From contig CAZWUZ010000001.1 of assembly GCA_964637655.1 (NCBI GenBank), positions 599 through 64,598 on the forward strand: a stretch of 64,000 bases of DNA, in the 5' to 3' direction. This document shows, piece after piece, positions 28,231 to 63,238 of the stretch. Every line of letters starts with the position of its first letter. The stretch's first letter is position 1. Below the pieces are notes generated by a model, which was not told the origin of the DNA, made no database searches, and was given only the letters and a program-made list of their open reading frames with translations. The position numbers and the translations under genes were made by a program. The DNA comes from an uncultured bacterium (lineage in GTDB: Bacteria > DAOPZR01).

Positions 28231-28716
28231 TTACCTGACCTTGTGTAGATACTTCAGCAACGCAATAAGCAATAGTATTCCACCGGGCACTAACAGGCAG
28301 CCAAACGCTGCATACATCACCTCTCTGGCATTGCGCGGTCGATGCGGCTTTGTGGAAGGAATTCTCTTCAATACAACCTTCGGTTCTTCCCCTGAGTGTT
28401 CGGTCGGAAAGTCATCTGCACTCAATACCTGGCTCACACCAAATGCCCATACCTTCAATTGCAGCAGCATATGTCGCTGATTCTGGTCGAGACAGTCAAT
28501 CACGACGAGCGAGTATTCCGTCTTGATCCCATCTTCATCGAACAGCGGTCCAACCCGGCACCGTGAAACCACATACCCATGTTTCCGGCAATATCTCATG
28601 GCATACGCCACGTAACATCGTTCGAGCCAACCATGGGTAAAGACAAGGAGAGGTAATGCCAGAATCCCGACAACTATGGCAGTGATGATTTCGATGATGC
28701 TCTTGTCCGTCATCAT
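28231..28716 (-). CDS. membrane protein (161 aa)
   Basis: N- and C-terminal TM helices. 4-nt overlap with the stop of the sensor gene upstream. Confidence 0.45.
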   Translation of the reverse strand: MMTDKSIIEIITAIVVGILALPLLVFTHGWLERCYVAYAMRYCRKHGYVVSRCRVGPLFDEDGIKTEYSLVVIDCLDQNQRHMLLQLKVWAFGVSQVLSADDFPTEHSGEEPKVVLKRIPSTKPHRPRNAREVMYAAFGCLLVPGGILLLIALLKYLHKVR

Positions 28717-46000: not shown

Positions 46001-49000
46001 AGACGACAACCGCCAGGCCGGCAGGTGCCGCGGGCGCGATGCTGTCGGCCGCAGCCGCGGTATCGACCGTTGCGCCGCGGAACGGCACCAGCCGGTAACT
46101 TTCGCTGCCCGGGCCATGGATCAGCGCGGCGATAGCACCGGCATGATCGGTACCCCAGTAATTCCGGCTGATATCGAGTTGCGGCTGCAGTGCCACCCAG
46201 GCACCGGAATCGGGATGCAGCGTGCCCGGGCGGAGATTATTACGGCGCACTGTCGCCGGCGACAGCAGCCGCAGGGCGTAGCCGGCGCATGCATCGACGT
46301 CGTTGCCGGTGATGACCGCGTTGTTCGACCCGGAAACCGAAATGCCGTCACCGCTGCTGCCGCGGACCAGGTTGCGCGTGATGCGGGCATCGTGCGCATT
46401 GGTCCTGATTTCGATGCCGGTGCTGTCGTTGCCATTGATGCGGTTGTCGGCAAGGTTGCAGCCAGTCGCATATTCGCACCGTATTCCTGCCTGCCCGTTG
46501 TCCACCAGCCGGTTGTCACTGATCTCGCTCCGGTGGGCATACGCCCCAACCCAGATGCCGCACTCCTGATTGTCCGCGGCATAATTGCCGCGCAGCACAT
46601 TATCCTCTGCACTGCTCAGCACATACCCCGAACGGTTGGTGGCATAACTGGCGTTGCCGGTGAGCAGGTTGCGATGCGATCCTTCGTACAGCGCAAAACT
46701 CCCGGCATTGAGCGTATGCGAGCAACTGATGTTGTCGCGCAGGATATTGTCACAGGCCCCGCTCAGGTAGAAGCCGCCTTCGCCGTTCTGCCAGCAGTAA
46801 TTGCGTTCCGCCGTGTTGCCGTGCGAATTGTGGAAGCAGATCGCCAGCATCGTGTTCTGCCGCACCTCGTTGCCGCGCAGCAGGTTGCTGTCCGACCCCG
46901 CTTCGAGATACAGTGCCGACTGGTTGTTGCTGAACAGCGTGCTGTCGATGCTGTTGCCGCAGGCGGCAGTCAGGCGCGCGCCCCAGAGCGTGTTTCCTGT
47001 GAGCCGGGCGCTCTCGATACGGCTGTTGCGTACGCGCGTAAAACGCACCCCTGTCACGCAGCCGTCAACCTGCACCTCGCGCAGACAGATGCCGTCAAGA
47101 TCGGTCGCGGTGATGCCCTCGCTGTTCCCGGCCCCGCGCACCGCGATGCCGTGCACGGTCACCCCGCCGGCAAGGCCGAGCACCGTGCCGGAACCTGACG
47201 CCAGCGCCGCCCACGTGTCCGGCCCGCCACCGGTGTCGGCACCGGCCTGCGCCCGGTACGAACGCAGCGTCATGCCGGTAGCAAGCGTGATCCCGCCGGC
47301 ATACGCGCCACCGTCACTCCGGCTGTAGACGATCACCGTGTCGTAGCCGTTGCCCGGGTTCAGCGCTGCAATGGCCGCGGCGGGCGACCCGAACGCCGTC
47401 AGCGGATCACCACCGCCCGGCACGCTGCTGTCGCCGCGGTCGCTGACATAGACCGTCATCGCGCCGGTATCCGCAAATACCGCCACCGAGAATCTGCGCG
47501 CCGCCGCGGTCAGCGTATCGCCCTGCAGGTTTTCCGCGATGACCCGCCAGTAGTATGTGCCGGGGAGCAGCGTCGATGCCGCCGTCGCCTGCTGCGCCGT
47601 CACCGTGCGGCTGTCGAGCAGGAGCGCGAAGGACGCTGCCTCGCTCACCTGCAGGGTGTACGTGTCACCCTGCCCGTTCCAGCGATAGACCGGCTGCGAC
47701 GGGGCAATGGTCATTTCCGCCGCCGGATACACGAGCGTCAGCGTCAGCGTCGTATCGAGCGTCAGCGTCTGCACCGGTGTCGTCTCGACTGCATTGCCCC
47801 GGGTGCTGATGACGCGCCAGTAGCAGGTGCCGGACGCGTAGTTCGCGACCGGCGTGTATGTCATGGCGGCGGTCTGCACGCTGTCCGTCAGCAGCGCGAA
47901 CGATGGCGTCGTGCTGACTTCCAGCCGGCTGCTGTCGCCGTTGGTTGTCCAGCGGAACGCCGGGGTCAGATCGCTCGAACGCATGCCGTCAGCCGGACTG
48001 ACTGCGGTCACGGTCAGTGCCGCCCCGGCCACGACCGAATACCACGACTCGTTCGGCCATGGCGCATGCGCATCGACTGCCGTCACCCGGTAGTACCAGT
48101 TGCCGCCGGGCCGAACGTCGAGATACGATGTTTCGCCCGACCCGGGCGTCGCTATCGGCTCACCCCAGTAATCCGTATCAGCCGTCGACGCGCAATAGAG
48201 CCGGTAGCCGGCAAGCCCGGTGAGCGCGCCACCGCCTTCCTCGTCGGTGGCAGTTGCAAGCCAGTTGATGACATACGTATCATCCTGCTGCCGCACCGTG
48301 ATGCCGTCCGGAACCGCAGGCGCTATCGTATCCGCGCCGGCGGACGTGTCGACGGGACCGAGGCGGAACGGCAGGACAGGCACGCGACTGTCAGCGCCCG
48401 CGCCCATGGCGGCGATGCTGCCTGAGTCCGTCGTCCCCCACCAGTTGCGCTGCAACGACAGCAGGGCGGTATCGGTCAGTCCGGTCACCGCGACTGCGGT
48501 CGCCGCCCCGCTGACCGCGATATTGTTTTTGGCGAAGGTGCAGGAGGCAACCGAGTCGGCACTGAATGCCGTTCCCTGGCTCATCTGCACTTCGTTCGCC
48601 GTCAGCAGATTGCCTGCGGTCAGCAGTTTGAATCCGAAAACCGTGTTGCCGGCAAGCCGGTTGCGCTGCAGGCGGTTCTCGCCGCCATCCTGCTCGACCC
48701 GTATGCCGGTATACTGGCCGGAACAGTCATTCCCCTCAATCCGGTTGCGCCGTGCATCCCACAAGTAGATGCCGTCGCCTGTACCGAGACCGTCCAGGTT
48801 GCTGTTGCACTGACAGTTGCTGACAACGTTGTCCGCCGAGGAACTGAGATTGATCCCGTAATACAGGTTCCCGTTCGCGCACGTCCGTTCGACCAGGCAA
48901 TGCGTCGCTGACAGGAGATACAGGCCGAACACGTTGCCGCTGAAATCACAGGCCCGGACCGTCACGCTGTCCGCCGTGCTGAGCATCATCCCCCAGTAAC

Positions 49001-49628
49001 TCTGCTGCACGCGCACATTGTCGAACAGGCAGTTGCTCACCATCTCCATGAACAGGCCACGCCAGATGTTCCGCACCGTGAGGTTGCGCACGGTGAGCCC
49101 GCTCCGGTTGCTCGCGGCAATACCCGGGGTCCACACCGGTAATCCGGTGAAATTGAACTTGCTCACGAAATCGATGATTGTGGTGGCGGAGTCGGCGCCG
49201 ATCAGCCAGACATTGTTGTCGGTAATCGTGATAGTGCTGGTTTCGGTATACGTGCCGGCATCGACGTACAGCGTGTCGCCCGGATTGAGCAGCGGGACAA
49301 CGCTCAGCAGCGTGCGTTTCGGGGTGGCGGGGGTAATGCCATTGTTGGCGCTGCTGCCGATTGCCGTGCACCAGACGTCACCCGCCGTCGCGGCGTCGTT
49401 GACGTACCAGACCTGCGCCTGCAGGAGCGTGGGTATCAGCACCAGCGACAGGACAAGGCCCAGCCGCACGACGCTCCTGACCTGCGGCAACATGCCCGGC
49501 CATGCCCTCGTTCGCACCGGCGTCTCCCCCGCCTGTTCCTTCAGTTCAGTTCCGCTGACCCGTTGGCCGCGGATGCCGCGCCTGCCGACCCGCGGACTGC
49601 AATCACCCGCGTTCCCGCCCGCTGCCAT
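43068..49628 (-). CDS. giant secreted parallel beta-helix repeat protein with T9SS-type (FlgD-Ig-like) C-terminal sorting domain; likely start at the signal-peptide Met near 49496
   Basis: 2186-aa ORF with many PbH1-like repeats (NxxxxNxxxGIxL). C-terminus VYPNPYVP...SGVYIILLRSGSETATRKVIVVR is CTD-like. Confidence 0.7.
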   Translation of the reverse strand: MAAGGNAGDCSPRVGRRGIRGQRVSGTELKEQAGETPVRTRAWPGMLPQVRSVVRLGLVLSLVLIPTLLQAQVWYVNDAATAGDVWCTAIGSSANNGITPATPKRTLLSVVPLLNPGDTLYVDAGTYTETSTITITDNNVWLIGADSATTIIDFVSKFNFTGLPVWTPGIAASNRSGLTVRNLTVRNIWRGLFMEMVSNCLFDNVRVQQSYWGMMLSTADSVTVRACDFSGNVFGLYLLSATHCLVERTCANGNLYYGINLSSSADNVVSNCQCNSNLDGLGTGDGIYLWDARRNRIEGNDCSGQYTGIRVEQDGGENRLQRNRLAGNTVFGFKLLTAGNLLTANEVQMSQGTAFSADSVASCTFAKNNIAVSGAATAVAVTGLTDTALLSLQRNWWGTTDSGSIAAMGAGADSRVPVLPFRLGPVDTSAGADTIAPAVPDGITVRQQDDTYVINWLATATDEEGGGALTGLAGYRLYCASTADTDYWGEPIATPGSGETSYLDVRPGGNWYYRVTAVDAHAPWPNESWYSVVAGAALTVTAVSPADGMRSSDLTPAFRWTTNGDSSRLEVSTTPSFALLTDSVQTAAMTYTPVANYASGTCYWRVISTRGNAVETTPVQTLTLDTTLTLTLVYPAAEMTIAPSQPVYRWNGQGDTYTLQVSEAASFALLLDSRTVTAQQATAASTLLPGTYYWRVIAENLQGDTLTAAARRFSVAVFADTGAMTVYVSDRGDSSVPGGGDPLTAFGSPAAAIAALNPGNGYDTVIVYSRSDGGAYAGGITLATGMTLRSYRAQAGADTGGGPDTWAALASGSGTVLGLAGGVTVHGIAVRGAGNSEGITATDLDGICLREVQVDGCVTGVRFTRVRNSRIESARLTGNTLWGARLTAACGNSIDSTLFSNNQSALYLEAGSDSNLLRGNEVRQNTMLAICFHNSHGNTAERNYCWQNGEGGFYLSGACDNILRDNISCSHTLNAGSFALYEGSHRNLLTGNASYATNRSGYVLSSAEDNVLRGNYAADNQECGIWVGAYAHRSEISDNRLVDNGQAGIRCEYATGCNLADNRINGNDSTGIEIRTNAHDARITRNLVRGSSGDGISVSGSNNAVITGNDVDACAGYALRLLSPATVRRNNLRPGTLHPDSGAWVALQPQLDISRNYWGTDHAGAIAALIHGPGSESYRLVPFRGATVDTAAAADSIAPAAPAGLAVVVSDSSCTISWAAVTTDEEAGGTFSRATYRVYRTGISDDTGWHQHQVLTTDGTTYVDTGINRLTTYYYRVTAFDTHSADGRVWENESWLSETLCVNGYNRYDGYARTDLIVAAVTATPALLAFGMDATFTATLRNVGSQPFTGPVTVTFSLSADTQPDAGDTVITTVMQPVLAVAAEGEVALSATVSVPHTWAFGVPYRILAVLTAADSVPGNNVGVSAEMVTTAYAHGFTPPVDGWAFANYSGGVVDWTVYRMAFGADQVEYPDGRHRPSADAFYGALPHSFAGSCFGFSLSALRLFNGDTPVPGGAAFTGAAGRTTASLNLINAFHLFQYGTSEFVAYRYAHWASPPPLRTTFTRLCAALSGTDSSAYPELEFFSGVNHSVVPYKVCRAADTAAENYLVYVYENNLPGDEARVFNFNLTGGTWSYLNSPWGTLSGGSSSLLLPPIRLADTRPRIPTAYLDAWPDVDYVQFTNVASFTLLLDGQVAATYADSRLQTASDSVFPLYVPSAPGDTVLAGMLVFGRQPFSISGTTRLEATQPATWRVFRQDRFIVLSATSSGGADTLVFAETECRFRPERVSVVRWQIGQVLGDEEQVFRLTDPAAPAGSELAVGFGDSSALALASTGETHTLTLELERSTPAGSVVRRLDPLLLPAQAAVTLSGIGWQALPTVDLQVATDLAGDGTVDETAPIDAPQVVADTLVVLARTTRDDTATFLLVTDSGGSMAVDIPVYSQLAGDYGDTLRLQIELAGADTGQRIGIRRVDPDSFTRRGLREYAAYLSTVFGLEVSDSAGRDLGSRPASFRTLTLTYTFAPGRLTRAQAEQLRFYTYDETSVSWQEAGTTTFDWDARTLIVQLPHLSIYGLFPGAGFAAPAADLRNAVVYPNPYVPHDGDPGNGIPYGSPGDGSGIYLNGLVPGTQVDIYDVRGRLIDRISVPEGTGAVQWDVRNTAGEDVASGVYIILLRSGSETATRKVIVVR

Positions 49629-51328: not shown

Positions 51329-52045
51329 TCAGACGATATAGTGATACAGGTAGATGCGGCCTGTCCGCTTGTTGACGTATACGCGAACTCCTCGCGATTC
51401 GCGAACAGTGCAGCACCACACGTTATAATCCTCCGCTGGCCCGGGCAAAAACCATGGCAGCGATGTGTTATTTTCAAACCGCCAGTTCGATGTTGTGGTT
51501 TCAGCGCGGTTGTCCGACAGAAATTGTGCGGTCCATTCCGGCGGCGCCTGAATTTCAAAATGATATATATGCTCTTCCGTCCAGTGCGCTGACCCCCAGT
51601 AGCGCGAATGGCATACCGTTATCTCCGGCGGCTGTTCCTCCTGGAATGCACGATACCAGTTGCGCGGGTCATCATCCCAGGTGCCCGCACCAATATAGAA
51701 ACTCTCAGTGAATAGAACGATAGTAAGCAGCAGTATTCCCAGCGCAATTCCGGGCAGCGCTACGAGGTTCAGCACGAGCGCAACGCGCGCACTGCACCTG
51801 CGGTCCTTGGCCACAATCAGGAACATGGTGAGTGCCGCCATAATCACCCAGAACAGCCAGGGCGAGGCATACGCCACTCGTCCAAAATACGTGAGTTCGC
51901 CACCTGCCTTTTCGTGGAGCGCCTGCATCGGCAGCACAATGTAAAGCGTCCATGCCAGTCCGCCCCCCATGGCGAGTATGTTGATAGTGCTCAGTATCCT
52001 GTTCACCATGTGCAACCTGCCGCGCACACCGCCGGCCTCGCTCAC
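51329..52045 (-). CDS. polytopic membrane protein (238 aa)
   Basis: Six TM helices; 4-nt overlap with the upstream gene. Confidence 0.45.
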   Translation of the reverse strand: MSEAGGVRGRLHMVNRILSTINILAMGGGLAWTLYIVLPMQALHEKAGGELTYFGRVAYASPWLFWVIMAALTMFLIVAKDRRCSARVALVLNLVALPGIALGILLLTIVLFTESFYIGAGTWDDDPRNWYRAFQEEQPPEITVCHSRYWGSAHWTEEHIYHFEIQAPPEWTAQFLSDNRAETTTSNWRFENNTSLPWFLPGPAEDYNVWCCTVRESRGVRVYVNKRTGRIYLYHYIV

Positions 52046-54165
52046 GGAATGCGCTCCGGCGTGTCGCTGCTCGAACCGAAACGGATGGGCGCGGACGAGT
52101 AGCTGAACTGTAATGCAAAAGGATTGCTGCTGTCACTCTCTGCGGCAAACGAGATGCCCGCACCGCGCAGAGCCAGGACACGTTGCCGGGCGCCACCCGC
52201 GACGCTGACTTGATACTCGCCTTCTTTCGGAAAGTGTATCCGCACAAATTCGTCATCACCCCGCAACACATAACGCCCCCGTTCCTGCCGGCCGCTGCTG
52301 CCGGTTATCGCCAATCCGGTCCCGACATACCTTTCGGTCGCGGTCACGACCATTCCCGCGGGAAAGTCCCCCTGTCCCGAGTAAACTTTCCCCGCGTAAA
52401 CGGCATCCGCCACCGGCGTCAGCGTGCCATCCCCGCCGGCGATAGTTTTGCTTACGATGACCGCACCGGGAACCATGAATTCATTGCTGTCCGACTCAGC
52501 GGGACTGTTCCCGAACGCGAATCCGCCAAGCACAACAATCACCGCCAGCGTGAGCGCAAATCTCCGCCACTGTTGCCGGGCGGAATCAACAGCCGCAGCG
52601 GCAGGGGCACTCTCCGCTGCCGGGGGCGCGCTCTCCGGTACTGCCGGCGCGCGCATGGCCATCACCGTATCCACCAGCACCGGGGAGATGCTCCACAATT
52701 GCACAAGGCACAGAAGCCAAAGCGCGATGAGTATCACTACCGCCAGCGACATAAACAACAGTGACTGCGGATAGCCGAAGCCAAAAAGCAATACCGTACC
52801 GGCAATGCCAAGCCACAGCGGAGCACGGTGCCAGTCGGGCACCGGCAATGCCCGCCGCCCGTGCCGATACTGCGCGGTCAGCAGCAACACAAAGGCGGCG
52901 GCGAGAAATACCGCCGCATCAACAGTAACGTTTCGCAGGCCCGTTCCCTGCTCAGCCGCCCTGCCCACAGTTTCGTAGTGCCTGTGCAACAGCGCGACAA
53001 GGATTGCGCCGTGCACCACCAGAGAACCAGCCGCCCACAACGTCAGCCGGCGCAGCAGGGCAATGCGCTCGTTGCGCCGCGCGGCCGACTCACGTCCGTC
53101 CGTCGGCTCTTCCTTTTCGCGCTGCCGTATGCGTTCTGCCGCGGCACGCCAATGACCGATGGCGGATATCTGGCTGATGACCGCACAATAGACCGCCGCC
53201 TGCAACATGAGCGATGCTGCGTCCGTCGCCAGCAACACCCCGGCAAGAAACAGCATGCCGCTTATCGCAATGAACGCCGCGCACCACGCGTCCAGCAGGC
53301 GCCCTTTGCTGTGCCGCTGCGCTGCGTGCGGCTGCAGCCGGCGCTGCATGTTCCGATATGCCCAGGTGCCGCCCAGGGTCAGCAGCCATGCCCCGATGAG
53401 CCACAGTTCTTCGCCAGCATACGCAAGGAAGGAAGTCGTCGGCTGCATGGCCCTGAGGCAGTTGAGCATCATGGCGCCAGCCGCTACGCTGCAGAGCATC
53501 AGGTGCAACGTGGTATGCTCGCAGGGAAGTTGCTGTTCAGGCGGCACCGCCCGCTGCAACCTGCCGGCCGGCTTGCTGCCAGCGGAATCGGTACGCGTCG
53601 CAGCAAATGCTTCAACCACACCGCTGATGACCAGCACAAACCCCGCAATGCCACACGCCAGAGCAAGCAGGCCGCCGATAACGGTTCCACAAAAGTACAG
53701 GAAGCCACGTCCGAATACTGAGTGCTCCGGCGCTGTGTCGAGCGAGAAGATCCGTGCTTCCATATCACCCTGCACACGCAGCGTGTACGTGCCCGGCTGA
53801 ATCACCTCAAAGTAGCCGACACTAGTCTTGTCCCGACCGTTGATGGAGAATGTCGTGCCGGTTTTCCCGACCAGCGGAACGCTGCTGTTCGTGTCCTGCC
53901 CGGTCAGCGTGAATTCCAGTCCGTGCGGCAGTTCGCTGCCAAGCGCGTAGACGCGCCCGTCATGCACCGTGCGATAGTTGTACCAGAGGAAATACCGGCC
54001 TGCCTCGCTCGCAACGAGCGAGGCTTCGCCCGGCGCGCGCATGACAATTTCGTTTTCCCCCGTCAGTTCCGGCATAAGTACTGGAGTAATTACCGCGATG
54101 GGCAGCACTACTGTTGCCGCCATCAGCAGCAGCCCTATGCCGATTTTTTTCATTCCCTTCTTCAT
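52042..54165 (-). CDS. large envelope protein: signal peptide, beta domain, about 10 TM helices, C-terminal beta domain; paralog of 60073..61701
   Basis: MKKGMKKIGIGLLLMAATVVL signal. C-terminal TLTPVADAVYAGKVYSGQGDFPAGMVVTATERYVGTGLAITGSSGRQERGRYVL is conserved in the paralog. Ends SDTPERIP. Confidence 0.55.
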   Translation of the reverse strand: MKKGMKKIGIGLLLMAATVVLPIAVITPVLMPELTGENEIVMRAPGEASLVASEAGRYFLWYNYRTVHDGRVYALGSELPHGLEFTLTGQDTNSSVPLVGKTGTTFSINGRDKTSVGYFEVIQPGTYTLRVQGDMEARIFSLDTAPEHSVFGRGFLYFCGTVIGGLLALACGIAGFVLVISGVVEAFAATRTDSAGSKPAGRLQRAVPPEQQLPCEHTTLHLMLCSVAAGAMMLNCLRAMQPTTSFLAYAGEELWLIGAWLLTLGGTWAYRNMQRRLQPHAAQRHSKGRLLDAWCAAFIAISGMLFLAGVLLATDAASLMLQAAVYCAVISQISAIGHWRAAAERIRQREKEEPTDGRESAARRNERIALLRRLTLWAAGSLVVHGAILVALLHRHYETVGRAAEQGTGLRNVTVDAAVFLAAAFVLLLTAQYRHGRRALPVPDWHRAPLWLGIAGTVLLFGFGYPQSLLFMSLAVVILIALWLLCLVQLWSISPVLVDTVMAMRAPAVPESAPPAAESAPAAAAVDSARQQWRRFALTLAVIVVLGGFAFGNSPAESDSNEFMVPGAVIVSKTIAGGDGTLTPVADAVYAGKVYSGQGDFPAGMVVTATERYVGTGLAITGSSGRQERGRYVLRGDDEFVRIHFPKEGEYQVSVAGGARQRVLALRGAGISFAAESDSSNPFALQFSYSSAPIRFGSSSDTPERIP

Positions 54166-54217
54166 TGCCTGGCCTCACGGTGGTCATTTTCGACAGTAGC
54201 ATAGTGTTGTCTGCGAC

Positions 54218-54829
54218 TCACGGGATGCGCTCCGGCGTGTCGCTGCCTGACACCAGGCGAATGGTCCCCGGCGTGTAGTCGCGGTAGAGTTTACCACGGC
54301 CATGCACCGTTTGCAGTGTGTAGGCAGCACCATCAGTCGTGTACGTGTACTGATTGTCCCACGGATCGGGAGTAATGGTGGCCAGATAGGGGCCGGACCA
54401 GCCGGGGGCATTGTCGGAATAGAGTTGCAGCAGCGTGGCTGGATACGTGCCTGTCGAAACATCGGTGCGGTACTGTTGCAGTTCTTTTGCGTAGTTGGTC
54501 AGGTCAGCCTCCGCGCCAATACATTTCATACTGTCGATGGTGATGAACAACTGTTGGAAAAAGAATGCCAGCCCGTACCATGCCACCACAACTGCCAGCG
54601 CGGCAAACAGCACACCCCTTCTTTTCTGCCGTTCGCGCCATGCCGAATATCCCGTGGTCAGCAACAGCACGAACATGAGGGGTGGCAGTCCCATGGCGCC
54701 CAGAAACCAGATGTGGCGCAATTGCACCGGAATGGCTTGCTGGATTCCGTACGAAGTTGTGCAGACCGCCAGCGTCACAGCCACTGCCGCGAGCCATAGC
54801 CATATGCCGTATGCTTTGCCGTCGCGCAC
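54218..54829 (-). CDS. GspG-like pilin-domain membrane protein (polytopic N-terminus)
   Basis: LQQYRTDVSTGTYPATLLQLYSDNAPGWSGPYLATITPDPWDNQYTYTTDGAAYTL. Three N-terminal TM helices; ends SDTPERIP. Confidence 0.6.
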   Translation of the reverse strand: MRDGKAYGIWLWLAAVAVTLAVCTTSYGIQQAIPVQLRHIWFLGAMGLPPLMFVLLLTTGYSAWRERQKRRGVLFAALAVVVAWYGLAFFFQQLFITIDSMKCIGAEADLTNYAKELQQYRTDVSTGTYPATLLQLYSDNAPGWSGPYLATITPDPWDNQYTYTTDGAAYTLQTVHGRGKLYRDYTPGTIRLVSGSDTPERIP

Positions 54830-54898
54830 TATCTTCTCCTTACCAGCGGACGATCAGGCAGTTGCCAAGCCGCAAGTCGATAAGGCCGATGGCCACTT

Positions 54899-55501
54899 TC
54901 AATCATCGTATTCCTGCCAGGTCGTAGTGTCACTGCTGTGGCGGGTGATAACCTCAGTCGTCTGTGTCCGCCAATATTGCCTGGGCGTGCGATGGACCGT
55001 ACTGATAGTGAACGAACTGCCGTCTGATTGATAACTGTACTGATTGTCCCACGGGTCGGTGGTAATGACGGCTGTGTAGGGGCCGGACCAGCCGGGCACA
55101 TTGTCGGCAACAAGCTGCTGCAGCGTAGCGGGATACCTGCTGTCCGTAACATCGGTTCGGTACAGATTCAATGCCTCAGCATGCGCAGCCAGGGTGCCGC
55201 GGGCGGCATCGCATCGCCGCGCTTCTTGCGTCTTGACTAGTTGATCCACAAAGACCATGCCGATGCCGTACAGTACCAGCAAAGCGATGCCCAGACGAAA
55301 CATAAAACGCTTGAGCCACGGCCAATCTTTGCACCGTATACGAACAACCACGCCAGCGATCTCCCGATACGCAATGGCTGCCAGCAATAATGGAAATGCT
55401 ATCATGCACAGCCATACGCCAACATTTTGTATTATGTCCACTCCTTCTCCTCCTGCCATCCGCTTGCACAGCCGCAACGTATCCCCGGGTGCAATCGGCA
55501 C
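54899..55501 (-). CDS. GspG-like pilin-domain membrane protein
   Basis: ALNLYRTDVTDSRYPATLQQLVADNVPGWSGPYTAVITTDPWDNQYSYQSDGSSFTI. Confidence 0.6.
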   Translation of the reverse strand: MPIAPGDTLRLCKRMAGGEGVDIIQNVGVWLCMIAFPLLLAAIAYREIAGVVVRIRCKDWPWLKRFMFRLGIALLVLYGIGMVFVDQLVKTQEARRCDAARGTLAAHAEALNLYRTDVTDSRYPATLQQLVADNVPGWSGPYTAVITTDPWDNQYSYQSDGSSFTISTVHRTPRQYWRTQTTEVITRHSSDTTTWQEYDD

Positions 55502-55517
55502 ATTGCTGTATGGCTCC

Positions 55518-56078
55518 TTACCAGCAGACGATCAGATAGCCGCGTCTGGTCGCGGCTTGATACATGATATAGGTCTTCATGTTGTTATCCGTTTTGGCAA
55601 TATAGGCATCGGCGCCAGCCAGCGTCGCCGGTTGCCACCAGCCCGGCACGCGTCCGCTGCTCCCCGGCAACGGTACGACATATTGCCAGTCGTCTGCCCG
55701 GTACACCGCTATCACCATGCGTCCGCCATGCGCCATGACACGATACGGTCCGGCCGCACGTCTGGCCGCCACCAGGCCGGCAATATCCTCGCTGTCTGCC
55801 GTGAATGAGAACCATTCCGAGGTCCTTCTGCCTGATACCGTCACGCTCTGCACATCGCGAATCGACGTATAGTCCCGGAATTCTCCGAATTCGCGCAACC
55901 TGCCGTACGCAGCAGGCCCTTCCTTCGCACTGAGGTATTCCGCATGCCTTTGCGCCCGGCCTGTTGCGTATTTCTGCAGCAGATACTGGCTGCCGGCGCC
56001 CAGAACCGCCATTGCCAGCAGATAGAGACAGATTCGCCGTGCATTATTCTTCATGTGTTCACCGACTCCAGCCAGCAC
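55518..56078 (-). CDS. secreted protein, WW-LxGAD paralog family
   Basis: Signal peptide. C-terminal RVPGWWQPATLAGADAYIAK is similar to 12642..13247 and 56051..56581. Confidence 0.5.
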   Translation of the reverse strand: MLAGVGEHMKNNARRICLYLLAMAVLGAGSQYLLQKYATGRAQRHAEYLSAKEGPAAYGRLREFGEFRDYTSIRDVQSVTVSGRRTSEWFSFTADSEDIAGLVAARRAAGPYRVMAHGGRMVIAVYRADDWQYVVPLPGSSGRVPGWWQPATLAGADAYIAKTDNNMKTYIMYQAATRRGYLIVCW

Positions 56079-56581
56079 TGGTTTTTAGCCGGCAGCCAAA
56101 GCAGGTTGCAGGATGACGTCCGGTACAATATCGCCCCCTCGAGTTCTTCCGGGCGCCACCAGGGCGGTACATGTCCGCCGAATTCCATCGACAGTGTATC
56201 GGTAATTCCCCAGTTCTGCGGCACCCCGTTGAACACTGTCTGATAGCCGTAGGTGACCGGCTGACCGTTTACCAATGATACGTTCGCCGTATCAGAAAGT
56301 TGCAGCACGGTGACAATCGCCGCGAAATCGTTGCGCGCACAGTTGAACCTGTACCACTCCACCCCGTCCTGAAACTGGAATACCCTGTACGACTCGACCC
56401 CCTCCAGAGTGCGGAAGTTGTCGATCAGCACGATGTGTTTCAGGTCGTCGGCTGCTTCCGCCCCGCTCGCCTGGGACACGTGTGCCATGAACAGCCCCGT
56501 CACCATCGTGTACATCGAGAATCCGATAAGACCGGCGAAAAACGCCAGGCCACCGAGTACAAATCTGGCAGTCCGGCTCAT
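56051..56581 (-). CDS. N-terminally anchored protein, WW-LxGA paralog family (ORF to 56614)
   Basis: TM helix FVLGGLAFFAGLIGF. C-terminal HVPPWWRPEELEGAILY. Confidence 0.5.
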   Translation of the reverse strand: MSRTARFVLGGLAFFAGLIGFSMYTMVTGLFMAHVSQASGAEAADDLKHIVLIDNFRTLEGVESYRVFQFQDGVEWYRFNCARNDFAAIVTVLQLSDTANVSLVNGQPVTYGYQTVFNGVPQNWGITDTLSMEFGGHVPPWWRPEELEGAILYRTSSCNLLWLPAKNQCWLESVNT

Positions 56582-57189
56582 TCGCGCACCGCCCGCGCGA
56601 ATTCGTCGTAGCATTCCCGCAGCGCCTGCCGCGTAAAGACCCGCGATTCGTCACGTGCCTGCTCGAAGATTTCCAGCGTGACGTCGCTCCCCCCCTGCAC
56701 GATCAGGTACGACTGCAGGCCCGGCTGGTCCATGTACTTCTCCAGCACCAGTTGCGTCTCGCCCGGACCGGCCGCAGCGCGCGTGATCTGCCCGCGCTCA
56801 TGTCCGAACCCGTATTCGCTCCCCAGCCCGACCAGCACGCGCGTTTGCGTGATATTGGGCGCGCTGAAATCGCTGAAAAAGCCGTTGGACGGAATGCGGA
56901 ACTGCCCCGCCGGCGGCTCGCCCGGCTCCCCGTTGCTGACCTCCAGCCGTATGGCGAAGGTCTTTCCGCCTTCCGACTGGATAACCCAGCGCGGCGTCTG
57001 CGCGAGATACTGTTCGAGCCGGGCGCGCTGTGCGGTTGTGAGCCCGGCGAACAACGGGTTGCCGACCGCGAAACGCGCCGCGGGCGGAGTTGTTTTCGGA
57101 TAGTCCGGCCCGAGCACCCCGCAGGCCGTCAGCAGCATCAATGCGGCAGTTCCGCCCAGCAGCGTCAGGCCCGCCCGCCAACCCGTCAT
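56578..57189 (-). CDS. lipoprotein (203 aa)
   Basis: MTGWRAGLTLLGGTAALMLLTACG lipobox. Confidence 0.5.
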   Translation of the reverse strand: MTGWRAGLTLLGGTAALMLLTACGVLGPDYPKTTPPAARFAVGNPLFAGLTTAQRARLEQYLAQTPRWVIQSEGGKTFAIRLEVSNGEPGEPPAGQFRIPSNGFFSDFSAPNITQTRVLVGLGSEYGFGHERGQITRAAAGPGETQLVLEKYMDQPGLQSYLIVQGGSDVTLEIFEQARDESRVFTRQALRECYDEFARAVRE

Positions 57190-57220
57190 GGTTGCCTCCC
57201 GTTCATCCGGATTATGTACC

Positions 57221-58237
57221 TCATTGCCTGCGTGCCGCCGCTTGCGTGCCCGTATTCTCCACGACCGGCGTTATCTCCATCACTGCCACCGGGCTATAGC
57301 CATGTGCGAGCAGCGTCAGCCGGTTCGACGGTATGTCATACAAACATACCTGCAGTTCTCCCAGTTGGAACAGCACCTTGTCTTCCGGAAGATGTGTCAC
57401 ATTACGCACCCGCCAGAAACCCAGCGGCGTTTCCATCGTTATCTCGAATGTCTGCCGGTTTCCGTCCTGCCGGCCAGTCAGTCCCGCACCCCAAAAACCG
57501 GACGAAACCTCCCATCTACTTTGCTCCGCCGTTCCCAGTTTCGCTGCCGGACCGAAGCGGCCCCACCAGCGAAGCGTAGCAAGATCGTCCCCGTACACGC
57601 GTTGCGTGCCGCCGTTGTTGCGTACCGGCACCGCCCGCGTCGCGAATGTATCCCGCACCGTATCGGTTTGCAAAATCTGATTGTCTTCGAGGCGCGTTGC
57701 CAGCAGCGAGCATCCGGTGCTGTCAGAAGCGGACAACGCCAGACTGCTGCTTTGTCTGGCATTGTTCAAATCGTAGATACGTCGGGCGGTCATATGCCGG
57801 TCAAGCGTATAGACATAGCCGTTTTCCGCAATATAGTAGACTGTCACTCCGTCAGGAAGCGGCAGGGCAGCGGCGGGAACAATTGCCGGTCCGGTCAGCA
57901 GCGATGTGCCGCTGACCAGCCAGAACCAGCCGGCCAGCAGCAGATATGAAGCACTCTGCACCATCAGTGACGCGCGCCAGGACCGACGCAGCCACTGTGC
58001 CTCCCCGCGAAACAGGAACGCCACAAACGGGAATTCAACGAGCTGCGTTATGGCATAGGCCAACACCACCAGAAGCAGAAACAGCGGCCGCACCGTCATG
58101 ACATCTGCGTCAACCACTTCGAGACCTGTAACGAACAACACTCCAAGCCAGGCCGATACCAGATTGGCAAGTACCATCACTCCGATGGCCAGGTTTTTCC
58201 GCCGGCCGCAATAGCGGGCAAGGAGCCCCCCCCTCAA
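57221..58237 (-). CDS. membrane-anchored protein with extracytoplasmic domain (338 aa)
   Basis: Four N-terminal TM helices; beta-rich C-terminal domain. Confidence 0.45.
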   Translation of the reverse strand: MRGGLLARYCGRRKNLAIGVMVLANLVSAWLGVLFVTGLEVVDADVMTVRPLFLLLVVLAYAITQLVEFPFVAFLFRGEAQWLRRSWRASLMVQSASYLLLAGWFWLVSGTSLLTGPAIVPAAALPLPDGVTVYYIAENGYVYTLDRHMTARRIYDLNNARQSSSLALSASDSTGCSLLATRLEDNQILQTDTVRDTFATRAVPVRNNGGTQRVYGDDLATLRWWGRFGPAAKLGTAEQSRWEVSSGFWGAGLTGRQDGNRQTFEITMETPLGFWRVRNVTHLPEDKVLFQLGELQVCLYDIPSNRLTLLAHGYSPVAVMEITPVVENTGTQAAARRQ

Positions 58238-58385
58238 ACCAGGCGACGAGCAGGTTGCCGAAAAACAGGTGGAACGCTCCCGCCCAAATCAGCGGCGTTC
58301 CGGCATTCGCTGCAGCAGCCGTCGGCAGCAGCAACAGCGCGGCTGTCCCGCCCAGCAGCGTCAGGCCCGCCCGCCAACCCGTCAT
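58110..58385 (-). pseudogene. duplicated 5' fragment of lipoprotein gene 56578..57189
   Basis: The first about 39 nt (MTGWRAGLTLLGGTAAL) are identical to the start of the 203-aa lipoprotein gene. The remainder overlaps the start of 57221..58237 and has no lipobox. Confidence 0.3.
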
Positions 58386-58436
58386 CGCAGCCCCCCGGTC
58401 TTCTGTGTCATTGGTATTTTGCCCGACCGTTTCATA

Positions 58437-58976
58437 TCAGTGCATGCCAATTATGCATCCGATATTGTAGGCCAGCCCTGTTGCCAGGTGGTACGTCACT
58501 ACTGCTACAATCAAGACACATGGAACGGCAATAACGGACAATACTACTGTGCAGAATGCGTACATCCATAGTCCGTTCTGCACTTGCCTTGCAGCAGCAA
58601 TCACTGAACCGATGAACATAATTCCCAGCGAAGCATAGAATACATAGACATGAGGCGGGTCGCCAAATCTCGTGTCGCTTCCCCAGAGCACCAGATATGC
58701 CACGACCTTGTACACATCAAATGGTATCAGTGCGAGGAACATGCAGGCAGCCGGGATGACGGGATTCGCACAGTATGTCCCACAATACCTGCGTGATTCG
58801 TTCCCGGATTGTCGCGTGACACTTTGTCCTATGGTCGGCGGGGGGACGTAGGATTGCTTCATCGATTTCGACGGAAAGTCATAACCGCAATCACAGCGCC
58901 GTGCCGTATCCGGATTCAGCATTCCGCAATTCGGACACTTCATCGCCGCCTCAGCACCGGCACGGTCCTGATTCAC
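58437..58976 (-). CDS. zinc-ribbon (CPNCG...CDCG) N-terminus with polytopic membrane domain
   Basis: MKCPNCGMLNPDTARRCDCGYDF then 4 TM helices. Confidence 0.5.
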   Translation of the reverse strand: MNQDRAGAEAAMKCPNCGMLNPDTARRCDCGYDFPSKSMKQSYVPPPTIGQSVTRQSGNESRRYCGTYCANPVIPAACMFLALIPFDVYKVVAYLVLWGSDTRFGDPPHVYVFYASLGIMFIGSVIAAARQVQNGLWMYAFCTVVLSVIAVPCVLIVAVVTYHLATGLAYNIGCIIGMH

Positions 58977-59596
58977 GGAATCTGCTCCGTCTTGCCGTTG
59001 CTGAACACATACCTGATGGTTTCGGCAACACCGTACCAGGTCGCATGCACGCTCTGAATCGTGTAGTTGCTGCCATCGCAGGTGTAGGCGTATCGGTTAT
59101 CCCATGGATCAGTGGTGATGGTTGCCAGGTACGGGCCGCTCCAGCCGGCCACGCCGTCGCTGTAAAGTTGATGCAGCGAGGTCAGCGGAAAGCGTTGGTC
59201 GCGCACATCCTCGCGGTACAGAGCCAGCGCCGGGTTGAATGCTTTCTCGATGTCGCCGGTTGCGCCTTGACGTTTCGACACATCGATCGCGTCTTCCAGG
59301 TGGAACCCGGCAACTCTGCACCAGACCAGCGCCAGCAGGACGGTGTAGGCCGTAAGGCGGACAGCACGCCCTTTGTCCCCGCCATGCCAGGCAAAACGCG
59401 CTGCGATGACCAGCGCAATGAGTGCCAGCGGCGCACACAGGTAGAGCAGAACGCTGAAATGCGTCCCGCACAGCAACCACGCCCAATGGCGTACCGGTTT
59501 CACCGTGCCGAACAACAGCAGGAACAGCAGTATCGCGCATGCCGCACTCCAGCCGAGCAGCTGCAGCCTTCGCCACAGTATCTGTCGGTCTTTCAC
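58973..59596 (-). CDS. GspG-like pilin-domain membrane protein
   Basis: ALALYREDVRDQRFPLTSLHQLYSDGVAGWSGPYLATITTDPWDNRYAYTCDGSNYTIQSVH...ETIRYV. Confidence 0.6.
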   Translation of the reverse strand: MKDRQILWRRLQLLGWSAACAILLFLLLFGTVKPVRHWAWLLCGTHFSVLLYLCAPLALIALVIAARFAWHGGDKGRAVRLTAYTVLLALVWCRVAGFHLEDAIDVSKRQGATGDIEKAFNPALALYREDVRDQRFPLTSLHQLYSDGVAGWSGPYLATITTDPWDNRYAYTCDGSNYTIQSVHATWYGVAETIRYVFSNGKTEQIP

Positions 59597-59659
59597 TGTT
59601 CTATCACCCGCATCAATCCACGTTGCATAGTGAGTTTATCTCCGCCGCCGTTGCGCATC

Positions 59660-60076
59660 TTACTGGTATTTTGCCCGGTATAGTTCCTGCGCGCGCATGC
59701 GCACCGCAGTGTCGGCTGCAACTTCGGTGATGGCGGTCGGCGACGGCACGAAGGCCATGTCGCCGACATCGGAGCTTTGCAGCACGATGGTGTCGCCGCT
59801 CTGCATCCAGCCCAGCGCCCACTTGTTCGCGTCGCCCGCGCGCGTCAGCAGGGTGGCGCACTCCTGCCCGGTGGTATCGGTCAGATGCAGCACAACATGC
59901 GCGTAGTCGGCGCGACTGGTATCGGTGGCATTGACCGACGCGAACACGCCATACGTGCCTGATGGCGACGGGTACGGCCCATCAGTATAATCCGACCTGC
60001 CGCAGGCGACGAGCAGGGCGAAGCAGGCTAGTCCGACGGCCAAGGTCAGGCATGGCATACGTCGCATGATCGTCAT
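59660..60076 (-). CDS. lipoprotein (138 aa)
   Basis: LAVGLACFALLVACG lipobox. Confidence 0.5.
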   Translation of the reverse strand: MTIMRRMPCLTLAVGLACFALLVACGRSDYTDGPYPSPSGTYGVFASVNATDTSRADYAHVVLHLTDTTGQECATLLTRAGDANKWALGWMQSGDTIVLQSSDVGDMAFVPSPTAITEVAADTAVRMRAQELYRAKYQ

Positions 60077-61701
60077 TCGACTGCACCGCAGTCTACGGGC
60101 GTGAGCGATATGCCCATGCCATACAGTTTGAATACCCGCTCCCGGTCGCCACCGGTGACGCTGACACGGTAATCACCCTGTGCAGGAAATTGTATGTCCA
60201 CGGAACTGTCCTCCCCCTGCAGCAGATAACGCCCCCGTTCCTGCCGCCCGCTGCTGCCGGTTATCAGCAGCCCGGTGCCGGAAACCGAATCGGTTGCGGT
60301 CACGATCATCCCTGTCGGATTATCTCCCTGCCCCGGGTAGAACCTGCCGGCATAGACAGCATCTGGCACCGGCGTGAGTGTGCCTTCATGCCCTGCCATT
60401 CCTACCTCCACCAGCACCGTTCCCGGCGCCATGAAACGGTGATTATCGGCGTCAGCATCGCTGCGCCGCGGCGCAAAGCATGTTGCCCCGACAAGAGCGA
60501 GAAACACCAGCAGGAGAACCATATGCACCCAGATACGCCAAGTGGGCACTGCCTTTGCCGGGGGCGCCGCCGGAGCACTCTCCACTTCTGGCAGCACGCT
60601 CTCGCCGGCAGCCGGGGCGCTTTCCGGTGCGGCCGGCTTGCTCATGGCCACGGTCGCATCGACCAGCAGCGGCGCAAGCCACCACAACTGCATCAGGAGC
60701 AGGAGCCAGACCGCGATGAGCATTACCGCCGCGAGTGACATGATGAACGATGAGTGCGTAAATCCGTAGCCAAACAGCAACACAGCAACAGCCAGCGCAA
60801 TCCAGAGCGACACCGTTTGCCAGCGGGGAACGGGCAGCATGCGCCTGTAATAGACATACTGTGACGTAAAAAACAGGATGTACAGGGTGGCGAGGTACGC
60901 CGGCGCCTCCACAACGAACACCCGTACTCCTTCGCCTGCCGCCATTGCCCGGGCAAGTACGCCCGCATGCCGGCTGATCAGCAGGACAAGGGCAATTCCA
61001 TTCAGCACCGCGTTGGCCAGCATCCACAGCGTCAGCCGGCGCAACAGGGTGATGCGTTCCCCGCGGCGTCTGACGGCTTCCGCCTCATCCGCCGATGGGG
61101 CTTGAGTTGCACGCTTGCGTATCGTTTCGGCTGCCTGACGCCAGTTGGCGGCAAGATTGAGTGCCATGACGGCACCAAGACAGGTTGCCGCCGCGGCCAT
61201 CAACTGCCCCCATTCGCCGGGCAGCAGGAGCGAGGCACTGTAAAGGGCGCCGCACACTGACAGCAGCAACATGAACCACACCATTACTGCGCGGTTGTTG
61301 CGGCGTCGCGTCGCGTCATCGAATGCCTCCGGCCATGGCCGGCGCCGGCGGGTAACCTGATAGATGCCGGTCCATGCCAGCACGCAGGCCGCGATAATCC
61401 ACAGTTCAGCAGAGAAGTACGCGGCAAACGTTTCCGGCGGCCGCCGGACGTTGAGGCAGTTGAGCAGCATCAGCCCGGCGGCGACGCTGCAGAGCATCAG
61501 TTGCAGCGTGGCATTCTCGTACGGCAGTAGCGGGCCGGCAGAACGTGTTGGTTGCAGGGCGGCGAGCCGTTTCTCCCGGCGGTGCAGCAGAAACACGATG
61601 AACCATACCGGCAGCACGAAGCCCAGGGCAAGCAGCAGGACCGGCACCACCAGCATCATGAATATCAGTACGGCATCCAGCATCCCCGCGCCCCCCTCCA
61701 C
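60073..61701 (-). CDS. polytopic envelope protein with C-terminal beta domain; paralog of 52042..54165 (annotated start is GTG; ATG at 61683 is possible)
   Basis: Shared TM core (LMLCSVAAG.MLLNCL) and C-terminal GTLTPVPDAVYAGRFYPGQGDNPTGMIVTATDSVSGTGLLITGSSGRQERGRYLL. Confidence 0.55.
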   Translation of the reverse strand: MEGGAGMLDAVLIFMMLVVPVLLLALGFVLPVWFIVFLLHRREKRLAALQPTRSAGPLLPYENATLQLMLCSVAAGLMLLNCLNVRRPPETFAAYFSAELWIIAACVLAWTGIYQVTRRRRPWPEAFDDATRRRNNRAVMVWFMLLLSVCGALYSASLLLPGEWGQLMAAAATCLGAVMALNLAANWRQAAETIRKRATQAPSADEAEAVRRRGERITLLRRLTLWMLANAVLNGIALVLLISRHAGVLARAMAAGEGVRVFVVEAPAYLATLYILFFTSQYVYYRRMLPVPRWQTVSLWIALAVAVLLFGYGFTHSSFIMSLAAVMLIAVWLLLLMQLWWLAPLLVDATVAMSKPAAPESAPAAGESVLPEVESAPAAPPAKAVPTWRIWVHMVLLLVFLALVGATCFAPRRSDADADNHRFMAPGTVLVEVGMAGHEGTLTPVPDAVYAGRFYPGQGDNPTGMIVTATDSVSGTGLLITGSSGRQERGRYLLQGEDSSVDIQFPAQGDYRVSVTGGDRERVFKLYGMGISLTPVDCGAVE

Positions 61702-61717
61702 TGCAACCTATGCAGGA

Positions 61718-61746
61718 TTATTACATAGTGTTGCTATGCTCGTCAA
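61718..61746 (-). promoter_or_regulatory. diverged copy of the conserved promoter (TTGACG-AGCATAGCAACACTATG-TAATAA)
   Basis: Same -35/spacer architecture and CATAGC..ACAC core as the four identical sites. About 10 nt upstream of the 542-aa gene. Confidence 0.3.
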
Positions 61747-61854
61747 CAGTGAGGTGGCACACCGGGTGCCGCAGCGGGGGGGGATTACCTGAAGAATGTC
61801 CTCATGTTCAGTGGTGACGATGTTCGGAGAGGATGCCGGTCAGCCGGAGTCCGG

Positions 61855-62079
61855 TCAGGCCGCGTAGCGCAGGATTTCGACTTCCGCTCCCTTACTGGCC
61901 GCAACTTCCGCCTGCGCCAGCACTGCATGGGTAATGGCTTCCGAAAGGAAATACTCCCCGCAATTGTCACACACTTCCGCCGGCACATCCTTGATAACCA
62001 CGGTTGTTTCGCCGCGTTGCAGCGTAACCGTGACCTTCCCGACAGCGGTTTCCCCGGTGCGGCAAATTGAGCATTTCAT
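61855..62079 (-). CDS. YgiT-type zinc-finger protein (MqsA-like antitoxin candidate); start at MKCSICRTGE
   Basis: CSIC...VPAEVCDNCGE is the YgiT zf pattern. ATGA overlap with the DUF4258 stop. Confidence 0.55.
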   Translation of the reverse strand: MKCSICRTGETAVGKVTVTLQRGETTVVIKDVPAEVCDNCGEYFLSEAITHAVLAQAEVAASKGAEVEILRYAA

Positions 62080-62387
62080 TTCGGCCTCCTCGTACGATAA
62101 TCGCTCATCCAAATCAGTGGATCCGGTACATACGCTGTGATCACATGGCACTGCATCACCGTCCAGTCAAGTGCATACACAACGTGAATTGCCGTTGTCC
62201 CGACGGTTCCCAACACCAGATAACTTGGAAACGGTGTATCGTCAGGATATTTCGCAATAGTATCGCCCTTGCAAATCACCTGAATTACTTCTGTCTCCGA
62301 GATCCCACGAGAAAACATACGTTGCACTGCATGGCCGCTAAATTGAAACGACATGGCAGTATCAGGTTTGTCCTTGCCGTTTACCAT
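62076..62387 (-). CDS. DUF4258-like protein (toxin candidate)
   Basis: FSGHAVQRMFSRGISETEVIQVI...LVLGTVGTTAIHVV fits the DUF4258 pattern. Confidence 0.5.
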   Translation of the reverse strand: MVNGKDKPDTAMSFQFSGHAVQRMFSRGISETEVIQVICKGDTIAKYPDDTPFPSYLVLGTVGTTAIHVVYALDWTVMQCHVITAYVPDPLIWMSDYRTRRPK

Positions 62388-62491: not shown

Positions 62492-63238
62492 TCATGGCAG
62501 CCACACCGCCTCGCTGTCGGTCGAAACGTAGCGGATGGTCTCGCGCACGTCGGCCCCGAAATGGTCGTGAACCGACATCAGCGTGTAGGTAGTACCATCC
62601 GTCTGATACTGGTATTCGTTGTTCCACGGATCGCTGGTGATGGTCGCCATATACGGCCCGCTCCAGCCGGCCGCGTTATCACGCAGCAGTTGCGTCAGCG
62701 TCGACGGATAGCGGTGGGGCGACACATCAGCGTAATACAGTTGCAGCGCGTCCCGACAGGCCATGATATCGCTGTGCGCCGCTCCGGCCTTGGAGGCACT
62801 GAGCGCATCATATATCCGGAGGCTGCCCGCAACGCTCGCGACGATGGCCACTGCCACCAGCGGCCATGCCAGCCACGGTGACATGGGCAGGAACCCGACC
62901 CGGTTTTCATCATTTCTGCACCGTGACAGGAATGCCAGAAACAGGACGGCAGTCACCAACGAGGCCAGCATAAAAAGCTTTGGCAGGTGTCCTGCCACTC
63001 CGTTGCTATTCAGCATGAACAGTTTTTCACCTATCGTATAGGCATGAAGCGTCATGCTCGACCGCCACCCCCAACTCCGGTCAAGTTCCAGGCCGGCAGC
63101 CGCGACGATGTACATGATACCCACGGCAATCGTCCAAAGCATAAACCCCGGCACAGCATCGTAGATGACGAACATGAAAATGCTGTAGCACCCCAGCAGT
63201 CCCTGTATTACAGCCACCTCCGGCAACCATCTACGCAT
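62492..63238 (-). CDS. GspG-like pilin-domain membrane protein
   Basis: ALQLYYADVSPHRYPSTLTQLLRDNAAGWSGPYMATITSDPWNNEYQYQTDGTTYTLMSVH...ETIRYV. Four N-terminal TM helices. Confidence 0.6.
   Translation of the reverse strand: MRRWLPEVAVIQGLLGCYSIFMFVIYDAVPGFMLWTIAVGIMYIVAAAGLELDRSWGWRSSMTLHAYTIGEKLFMLNSNGVAGHLPKLFMLASLVTAVLFLAFLSRCRNDENRVGFLPMSPWLAWPLVAVAIVASVAGSLRIYDALSASKAGAAHSDIMACRDALQLYYADVSPHRYPSTLTQLLRDNAAGWSGPYMATITSDPWNNEYQYQTDGTTYTLMSVHDHFGADVRETIRYVSTDSEAVWLP

Follow-up and report, generated by a model that had tools for sequence, protein, structure and literature searches.

A rare family of polytopic membrane proteins with tethered beta-sandwich domains in an uncultured bacterium

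The DNA analysed here, referred to as the window, is a stretch of 64,000 nucleotides (nt) from an uncultured bacterium (GTDB lineage DAOPZR01; GenBank assembly GCA_964637655.1, contig CAZWUZ010000001.1, positions 599 to 64,598 of the forward strand). It carries two genes, named A (52042..54165) and B (60073..61683), which lie, like all genes of the region around them, on the minus strand and whose products are, as far as can be judged from sequence, paralogous polytopic inner-membrane proteins of a very rare, previously undescribed family. A first-pass annotation had proposed that the two are related envelope proteins with about ten transmembrane (TM) helices and a conserved C-terminal beta domain, and had named a lack of significant pairwise similarity as the outcome that would speak against it. 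BLASTP instead aligned residues 213-673 of A with residues 59-533 of B at 46% identity (220/476, 16 gaps, E 3e-116), which is far beyond chance and makes the paralogy real.

Architecture of the two proteins

The C-terminal domain is the best-conserved region of the pair (62% identity, versus 44% in the membrane core) and is also visible as a 71% DNA repeat. The TM-core motif quoted in the annotation reads LQLMLCSVAAGLMLLNCL in B and LHLMLCSVAAGAMMLNCL in A, and the pattern GTLTPV.DAVYAG..Y.GQGD.P.GM.VTAT....GTGL.ITGSSGRQERGRY is present in both proteins. A tblastn search of the window with four sub-domains found no third copy.

Gene A (52042..54165) encodes 707 amino acids (aa) from an ATG at 54165, with a GAGG 9-12 nt on its 5' side, and comprises an N-terminal TM-beta-TM module, an eight-TM core, a linker, a further TM helix, a C-terminal beta domain and a tail. 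Residues 1-7 (MKKGMKK), predicted to be cytoplasmic, are followed by TM1 (residues 8-30, 54076..54144; hydropathy 2.63, helix 2-30 in the AlphaFold2 (AF2) model). This stretch had been read as a signal peptide in front of a beta domain; both the export signal and the beta domain stand, but the hydrophobic stretch, long and without a clear site of cleavage, is more probably retained uncleaved as a signal-anchor. Two stand-alone relatives of the module, P0005 and P0006, also have such an N-terminal hydrophobic helix. Behind it lies a predicted periplasmic beta-sandwich (N-type; residues 38-145, 53731..54054; AF2 strands with a predicted local distance difference test score, pLDDT, of 70-85), after which TM2 (residues 157-185, 53611..53697; hydropathy 2.65, AF2 helix 146-195) would bring the chain back to the cytoplasm, where a loop joins it to the first core helix. 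The core spans TM3-TM10 (residues 216-492, 52690..53520; 31% identical to the metagenomic relative P0004) and includes an Arg-rich cytoplasmic helix at residues 338-373, between TM6 and TM7. A cytoplasmic Pro/Ala-rich linker with a P..PESAP motif (residues 493-532, 52570..52689; AF2 pLDDT <50) leads to TM11 (residues 533-553, 52507..52569; indicated by hydropathy and by an AF2 helix at 528-550), the tether of the C-terminal, likewise putatively periplasmic beta-sandwich (C-type; residues 556-670, 52156..52500). The last 37 residues (671-707, 52045..52155; pLDDT 26-36) form a tail predicted to be disordered.

The mechanical open reading frame (ORF) of gene B encodes 542 aa and extends to a GTG at 61701; the most likely translation start is the ATG at 61683, which gives 536 aa. 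A GGAGG lies 11 nt upstream of this ATG and none precedes the GTG, and the NCBI-sourced database copy of the protein (P0003, 536 aa) begins at the same ATG. The N-terminal hydrophobic segment (61603..61671; hydropathy 3.03), a single long TM helix or possibly a hairpin, aligns to TM2 of A. It is followed by the eight-TM counterpart of A residues 216-492 (60679..61518, from the alignment), by the cytoplasmic PESAP linker and final TM helix (60469..60678, from hydropathy and alignment) and by the C-terminal beta-sandwich (60100..60456). The N-terminal beta module and the C-terminal tail of A are both absent from B.

Hydropathy, AF2 secondary structure and the alignments, combined into a topology prediction of the kind the annotation had suggested, give 11 hydrophobic helices in A and 10, possibly 11, in B; the same three lines of evidence confirm the shared multi-TM core. 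Lysines and arginines are concentrated in the loops predicted to be cytoplasmic (31, against 3 in the short loops on the periplasmic side), which sets the orientation as N-in, with both beta domains outside the cytoplasm. The organism looks diderm from several features of the window: signal peptides of lipoproteins, a protein resembling PorV/UPF0164, and a beta-helix protein whose C-terminal tail, of type IX secretion system (T9SS) type, scores below the Pfam cut-off. Outside would therefore mean the periplasm. The term envelope proteins is better replaced by polytopic inner-membrane proteins with periplasmic domains.

In the alignment of the core-containing family (A, its orthologue, B and P0004), 83 columns are invariant. 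The invariant positions towards the periplasmic face include, in A numbering, N235 (TM3), Y249, E253 and W255 (TM4), R395-H396 (after TM7) and R411, while those on the cytoplasmic side include several arginines of the RRxERIxLLRxxT helix, D499 and the glutamate of the PESAP motif; P..PESAP itself is invariant across A, B and P0004. All members share a signature consisting of AGxMxLN (TM3), FxAYxxExW (TM4), an RRxxRIxxLRxxT helix, xRH after TM7 and P..PESAP after TM10. The cysteine of LMLCSVAAG is missing in P0004.

The annotation had not recognised the family, and comparisons with Pfam, NCBIfam, PADLOC and PDB sequences, none of which gave a significant match, justify this. The core matched no entry in any of the four, and searches of PDB sequences with A, the core profile and the beta-domain profile returned nothing significant; a filamin repeat at E 1.2, through an EPGDYxVSV strand, was all that came up. 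Pfam and NCBIfam gave no match at E<=1 to known intramembrane enzymes (exosortase, rhomboid, CPBP, Wzy/WaaL, Acyl_transf_3), and inspection of the sequences by eye found no HExxH, GxSG within a TM helix or EExxxR. The PADLOC models of anti-phage defence matched neither A nor B nor eight neighbouring proteins. An internal repeat of the core was considered and rejected (hhalign of TM3-6 against TM7-10, probability 1.4%). With no detectable relative among known families, the core may be a new fold.

The beta domain, unlike the core, is folded with confidence in the prediction. Its conserved, all-beta character is borne out by BLASTP and by the predicted fold; of the approximately 170 aa originally assigned to it, about 115-125 form the folded part, and the rest corresponds to the preceding TM helix and to the 37-aa tail of A. 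The N-terminal domain of A and the C-terminal domain of B give a weak BLASTP sub-alignment (E 0.005), and profiles of the N-type (A, P0005, P0006) and C-type (A, B) domains match in hhalign over 107 columns (95.9%, E 5.7e-9), so A bears two diverged copies of one domain, the N-type copy being followed by an extra helix, TM2. Foldseek, which the annotation had recommended, picked the collagen-binding domain (CBD) of ColG/ColH at probability 1.0 with the full model, and the modelled domain is a jelly-roll beta-sandwich of this kind. Likeness at the level of the modelled fold, with 4-18% identity throughout, extends to the C-terminal jelly-roll of subtilisin Tk-SP, to C-CPE (the C-terminal domain of Clostridium perfringens enterotoxin), XepA/YomS, the GOLD domains of TMED1, p24 and GPR180, the collagen-binding (PPC) domains of ColH/ColG, the SID1 ectodomain and several carbohydrate-binding modules (CBMs); the ectodomain sandwiches of pentameric ligand-gated ion channels (pLGICs) are also similar. 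In Pfam, the N-type region of A reached 17.6 bits (E 0.007) against PPC (PF04151), below the cut-off of 25.9, and no stretch passed alone; one of the five beta-domain sequences gave a PPC match (E 0.027). As modelled, the domain is thus a generic jelly-roll sandwich, a type that serves in ligand binding, and no named family can be assigned to it.

Relatives and selection

Relatives of A and B are exceedingly scarce. An exhaustive phmmer search with B against 1.84 billion cluster representatives (E<=1e-3) yielded four matches: B, A, P0004 (411 aa, 37% identity, E 1.7e-30) and P0005 (190 aa, E 4.6e-4). P0004, which has two records and originates from metagenomes of groundwater (BioProject PRJNA268031, cited by several papers, is given in one of the records), consists of the core only and ends just past its last TM helix; it is the sole further relative of the membrane core in about 1.8 to 5.8 billion proteins. 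A profile search with the core found P0003 (that is, B) and P0004 only, even at E<=10, and a word-indexed search with A returned A itself alone; exact look-ups in an assembly index had no entry for A or for B. Two scans of one genome per GTDB species contained no relatives, the core profile had no match in the metagenome scan, and two scans of viral contigs were likewise empty. Among billions of sequences, the core is known from three lineages and the module from about six.

Outside A, the module occurs as stand-alone TM-beta-TM proteins of about 190 aa, equivalent to A residues 1-190 and represented by P0005, P0006 (both also found by the profile search with the beta domains) and the metagenomic loci L008-L010, on contigs of both high and low GC content. 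In its N-terminal module, A is 30% identical to P0005 (E 5e-23). From these alignments, A is a fusion of the stand-alone module with a B-like protein. By Rosetta-stone logic, parts that are fused in A and free elsewhere suggest that the tethered sandwich and the core are separable yet work together.

Informative shared neighbours were not found at the loci of P0004, P0005, P0006 and L008-L010, save that P0006 lies beside a prepilin-type gene. At two loci with stand-alone module genes (L001, 3389-3775, and L008, 12096-15284), the next gene after the module gene is convergent to it and encodes a large, exported protein with repeats, and the two repeat proteins have a common C-terminal region, WAVRNQ...WMRITLS.RPW...GWGGSGP..GYW.GE.EDY. 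This arrangement seems to be local synteny of two related uncultivated organisms.

Long spurious ORFs abound on both strands of GC-rich DNA, and the near absence of homologues in public data could likewise suggest that A and B are chance ORFs or decaying pseudogenes. An orthologue of A argues otherwise. A Logan contig from SRR22388008 encodes a collinear protein of 707 aa, with no indel and the same flanks, 92% identical in protein and 93.8% in nucleotide sequence. The Nei-Gojobori ratio of nonsynonymous to synonymous substitution rates (dN/dS) between the two is 0.32 overall, from which it follows that A is under purifying selection and is a real gene. By part, the ratio is 0.22 in the N-terminal module, 0.39 in the core, 0.77 in the linker, 0.21 in TM11 plus the C-terminal domain and 0.47 in the tail; given these values and the high A/B identity of the C-terminal domain, selection is strongest on the beta domains. 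The intact frames with 46% identity across 476 aa, the distant relatives in unrelated metagenomes, the confident fold of the beta domain and the coherent topology all tell against spurious ORFs as well, which are regarded as extremely improbable and are ruled out by the dN/dS value and the collinearity.

Gene neighbourhood

Four paralogous genes for T2SSG-domain (GspG-like) proteins accompany A and B (54218-54829, 54899-55501, 58973-59596 and 62492-63238, all on the minus strand; PF08334, E 1e-7 to 6e-13). The proteins are 42-62% identical in their common part, have two to four N-terminal TM helices followed by the GspG-like globular domain, and lack the prepilin G|FTLIE leader; from their sequences they look like membrane-anchored, non-processable pseudopilin-like proteins of unusual architecture. 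Gene A lies 52 nt downstream of two of them. A 62-nt direct repeat (52041-52102 and 54217-54278, 77% identical) covers the last ~20 codons, the stop and one further base, and the end of the A tail (..SSSDTPERIP) is accordingly shared with the T2SSG gene at 54218-54829 (tblastn E 0.006). The orthologue of A keeps this tail, which appears to have been acquired from the neighbouring T2SSG gene by recombination. A segmental block duplication was rejected as the origin of the arrangement, since, apart from the genes as such, repetition is seen only in the T2SSG domains and in two short tails.

On the 3' side of A, a gene at 51329..52045 (minus strand) starts with a GTG that overlaps the stop of A by 4 nt and is possibly translationally coupled to it; its product has three TM helices and a domain of ~110 aa, with no family match. 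The ATG of a lipoprotein gene at 59660..60076 (minus strand; no family match) overlaps the stop of B in the same way, by 4 nt, and beyond it lies the T2SSG gene 58973-59596. The genes directly 3' of A and of B are unrelated to each other and the neighbours of the relatives are uninformative, so conserved synteny was rejected. Directly 5' of B, positions 61855-62387 hold what resembles a toxin-antitoxin pair on sequence grounds, followed by the T2SSG gene 62492-63238. The pair consists of a DUF4258 protein (62076-62387, minus strand; E 7e-21) whose gene overlaps that of a zinc-ribbon MqsA/YokU-like putative antitoxin (61855-62151, minus strand; best Pfam E 1.5e-5, 25.6 bits, below the family cut-off of 30). 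A sigma-70-like promoter match (TTGACG-18-AATAAT with TG; 61717..61746, minus strand) lies 5' of B; it is a consensus match only, and such sites are not more numerous in the region than expected from shuffled sequence. About 30 nt upstream of its -35-like box is an 8-nt G/C homopolymer (61776-61783), one of only three homopolymer runs of 8 in the whole window, another being at 26932-26939.

The remaining run, of eight G on the minus strand (58226-58233), is where the ORF 58110-58385 overlaps the ORF 57221-58237 in another frame. The former (minus strand) opens with a signal peptide, MTGWRAGLTLLGGTAAL, and in this part shares an 85% DNA repeat with the beginning of the gene 56578-57189. Positions 57221-58385 probably hold one membrane protein of ~390 aa split by a frameshift, which would reflect an error of sequencing, the decay of a pseudogene or a tract subject to phase variation. 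Also between A and B are two adjacent genes (55518-56078 and 56051-56614, minus strand) for proteins of ~186 aa, 25% identical to each other (E 5e-6), each with a single N-terminal TM helix and no family match. Further away, the minus-strand gene 43068-49628 encodes a right-handed beta-helix protein of 2186 aa (NosD/Beta_helix) with a weak FlgD_ig/Por_Secre_tail C-terminus below the Pfam cut-off, and it is adjoined by the gene (41527-43176, minus strand) for the PorV-like protein, a UPF0164/PorV-like domain fused to TPR repeats; the two are hints of a T9SS-like export route in the organism. The genes 22164-24872 and 28713-31463 (minus strand) encode proteins of ~900 aa with an N-terminal HAAS domain, a Redoxin or AhpC/TSA-like region slightly under the Pfam cut-offs and C-terminal TPR repeats, and judged from this unusual domain string they look like a further lineage-specific pair. 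Searches of the window for rRNA, tRNA and Rfam families were negative.

Possible function and comparison with known systems

By analogy with known proteins, it is tentatively suggested, with somewhat less than even confidence, that the periplasmic sandwiches are ligand-recognition modules on a membrane core with a periplasm-facing polar site. B has one and A two homologous jelly-roll domains on the periplasmic side, each tethered to the membrane by a helix of its own; these would recognise an envelope component, either a glycan or a protein. Sitting above the periplasmic face of the core, they would present or pass the ligand to its polar site, and the core would then act as a receptor or cargo-handling device. 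Several observations weigh against this proposal. The neighbourhood is not conserved among family members and hence lends it no guilt-by-association support; three core-containing lineages are known, so that residues called invariant rest on three to four sequences; and the AF2 model of the core is of low confidence (pLDDT 55-72, predicted template modelling score 0.36), which makes the proposed seating of the beta domains above it tentative. Moreover, an output domain that could be recognised on the cytoplasmic side is missing from both A and B, and a role in signalling is the less likely for it.

The same features are open to other explanations. The cluster of invariant Asn, Glu, Arg-His and Arg at the periplasmic leaflet, kept even in the core-only P0004, would suit an enzyme (a transferase, ligase, polymerase or hydrolase) that works within the membrane or towards the periplasm and whose substrate is lipid-linked or a polymer of the envelope, with the sandwich, which resembles carbohydrate- and collagen-binding modules, as a CBM-like substrate binder. 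A TM core followed by a tethered periplasmic domain is also the layout of AT3-SGNH acyltransferases and Wzy/WaaL-type enzymes. Yet the absence of a match to enzyme families in Pfam/NCBIfam (E<=1) and to PDB sequences or folds, the lack of polysaccharide or lipid biosynthesis genes adjoining A or B, and a dN/dS of 0.39, rather relaxed for a catalytic core, make an enzyme fairly unlikely. If the core were instead a permeation pathway, the sandwiches could serve as gate, cap or substrate capture, as in SID1 or TMEM87-like proteins, and the multi-helix core, the conserved polar residues inside TM3 and TM4 and the fold likeness to the SID1 and pLGIC sandwiches would fit; but the core lacks the internal structural repeat typical of transporters, matches no transporter family in Pfam, NCBIfam or PDB sequences, and has its conserved polar residues on one face of the membrane rather than across the bilayer, so a transporter or channel is given a low likelihood.

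About as improbable is a scaffold in which A and B anchor or organise the neighbouring pseudopilin-like proteins in a lineage-specific surface apparatus. Its appeal lies in the two T2SSG genes adjoining A and the two more flanking B, in the T2SSG-derived 3' tail of A, and in the prepilin-type N_methyl gene that adjoins the stand-alone module P0006. Pilin-like neighbours are absent, however, from the P0004 locus and from the four remaining loci of the module, adjacency may be coincidental in an island rich in lineage-specific paralogues, and the shared tail may merely record a recombination event. The ligand-recognition proposal also has a bolder form, held to be quite unlikely, in which the eight-TM core is a new fold that makes up, with the separable tethered jelly-roll modules, a bacterial system for reception or cargo handling not described before. 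In function it would be the prokaryotic equivalent of the eukaryotic GOST/Wntless-like proteins, and it might cooperate with the leaderless GspG-like neighbours.

Were ligand recognition correct, A and B would represent a new modular way of coupling it, in the bacterial periplasm, to a membrane core; the beta-sandwich units are found joined to either end of the core and also as membrane proteins on their own. The family is a clean example of the "dark" membrane-protein space of uncultivated bacteria. As it is tiny and has no assigned function, its immediate value is that of an orphan family now catalogued and of a connection, in Rosetta-stone terms, between hypothetical proteins of two kinds, and it answers no standing question.

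Among known proteins, the beta domain is, as modelled, closest in fold to the PPC/collagen-binding domain (PF04151; ColG/ColH CBD, PDB 1nqj, 3jqw, 5iku) and resembles the C-terminal jelly-roll of subtilisin Tk-SP (3afg, 9ues). Identities to these are 8-12%, with 17.6 bits against the cut-off of 25.9, and they are appended to secreted proteases, whereas the domain of A and B is tethered to a polytopic membrane protein. In overall layout, the AT3-SGNH O-acyltransferases of the OafA/OafB type, with a core of ~10 TM helices, a cytoplasmic linker, an additional TM helix and a periplasmic globular domain, are similar to A and B. The latter, however, match neither Acyl_transf_3 nor SGNH, and their periplasmic domain is a beta-sandwich instead of an SGNH hydrolase.

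The eukaryotic GOST proteins (TMEM87A, GPR180, Wntless; PMC9711517, PMC11605061) combine, as A and B do, a beta-sandwich with a multi-TM core. A and B differ from them in being bacterial, in having an eight-TM core and in carrying the main beta domain C-terminally on its own tether; there is no sequence relationship, and a GPCR-like seven-helix domain is not seen in the low-confidence model of the A core. The 7TMR-DISM receptors (7TMR-DISMED2 + 7TM; RgsP, PMC6107284) share with A a signal sequence, a periplasmic CBM-like sandwich, in those receptors a presumed ligand sensor, and a multi-TM region. A and B, by contrast, give no Pfam match to DISMED2 or DISM_7TM at E<=1, have eight core helices instead of seven and a sandwich in a different position, and possess, in place of a cytoplasmic kinase, GGDEF or phosphatase, only the ~36-aa helix and the Pro/Ala linker. 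By analogy it is conceivable, if still short of probable, that A and B work like these devices built of a beta-sandwich and a multi-TM core, while belonging to neither the 7TMR-DISM nor the GOST family.

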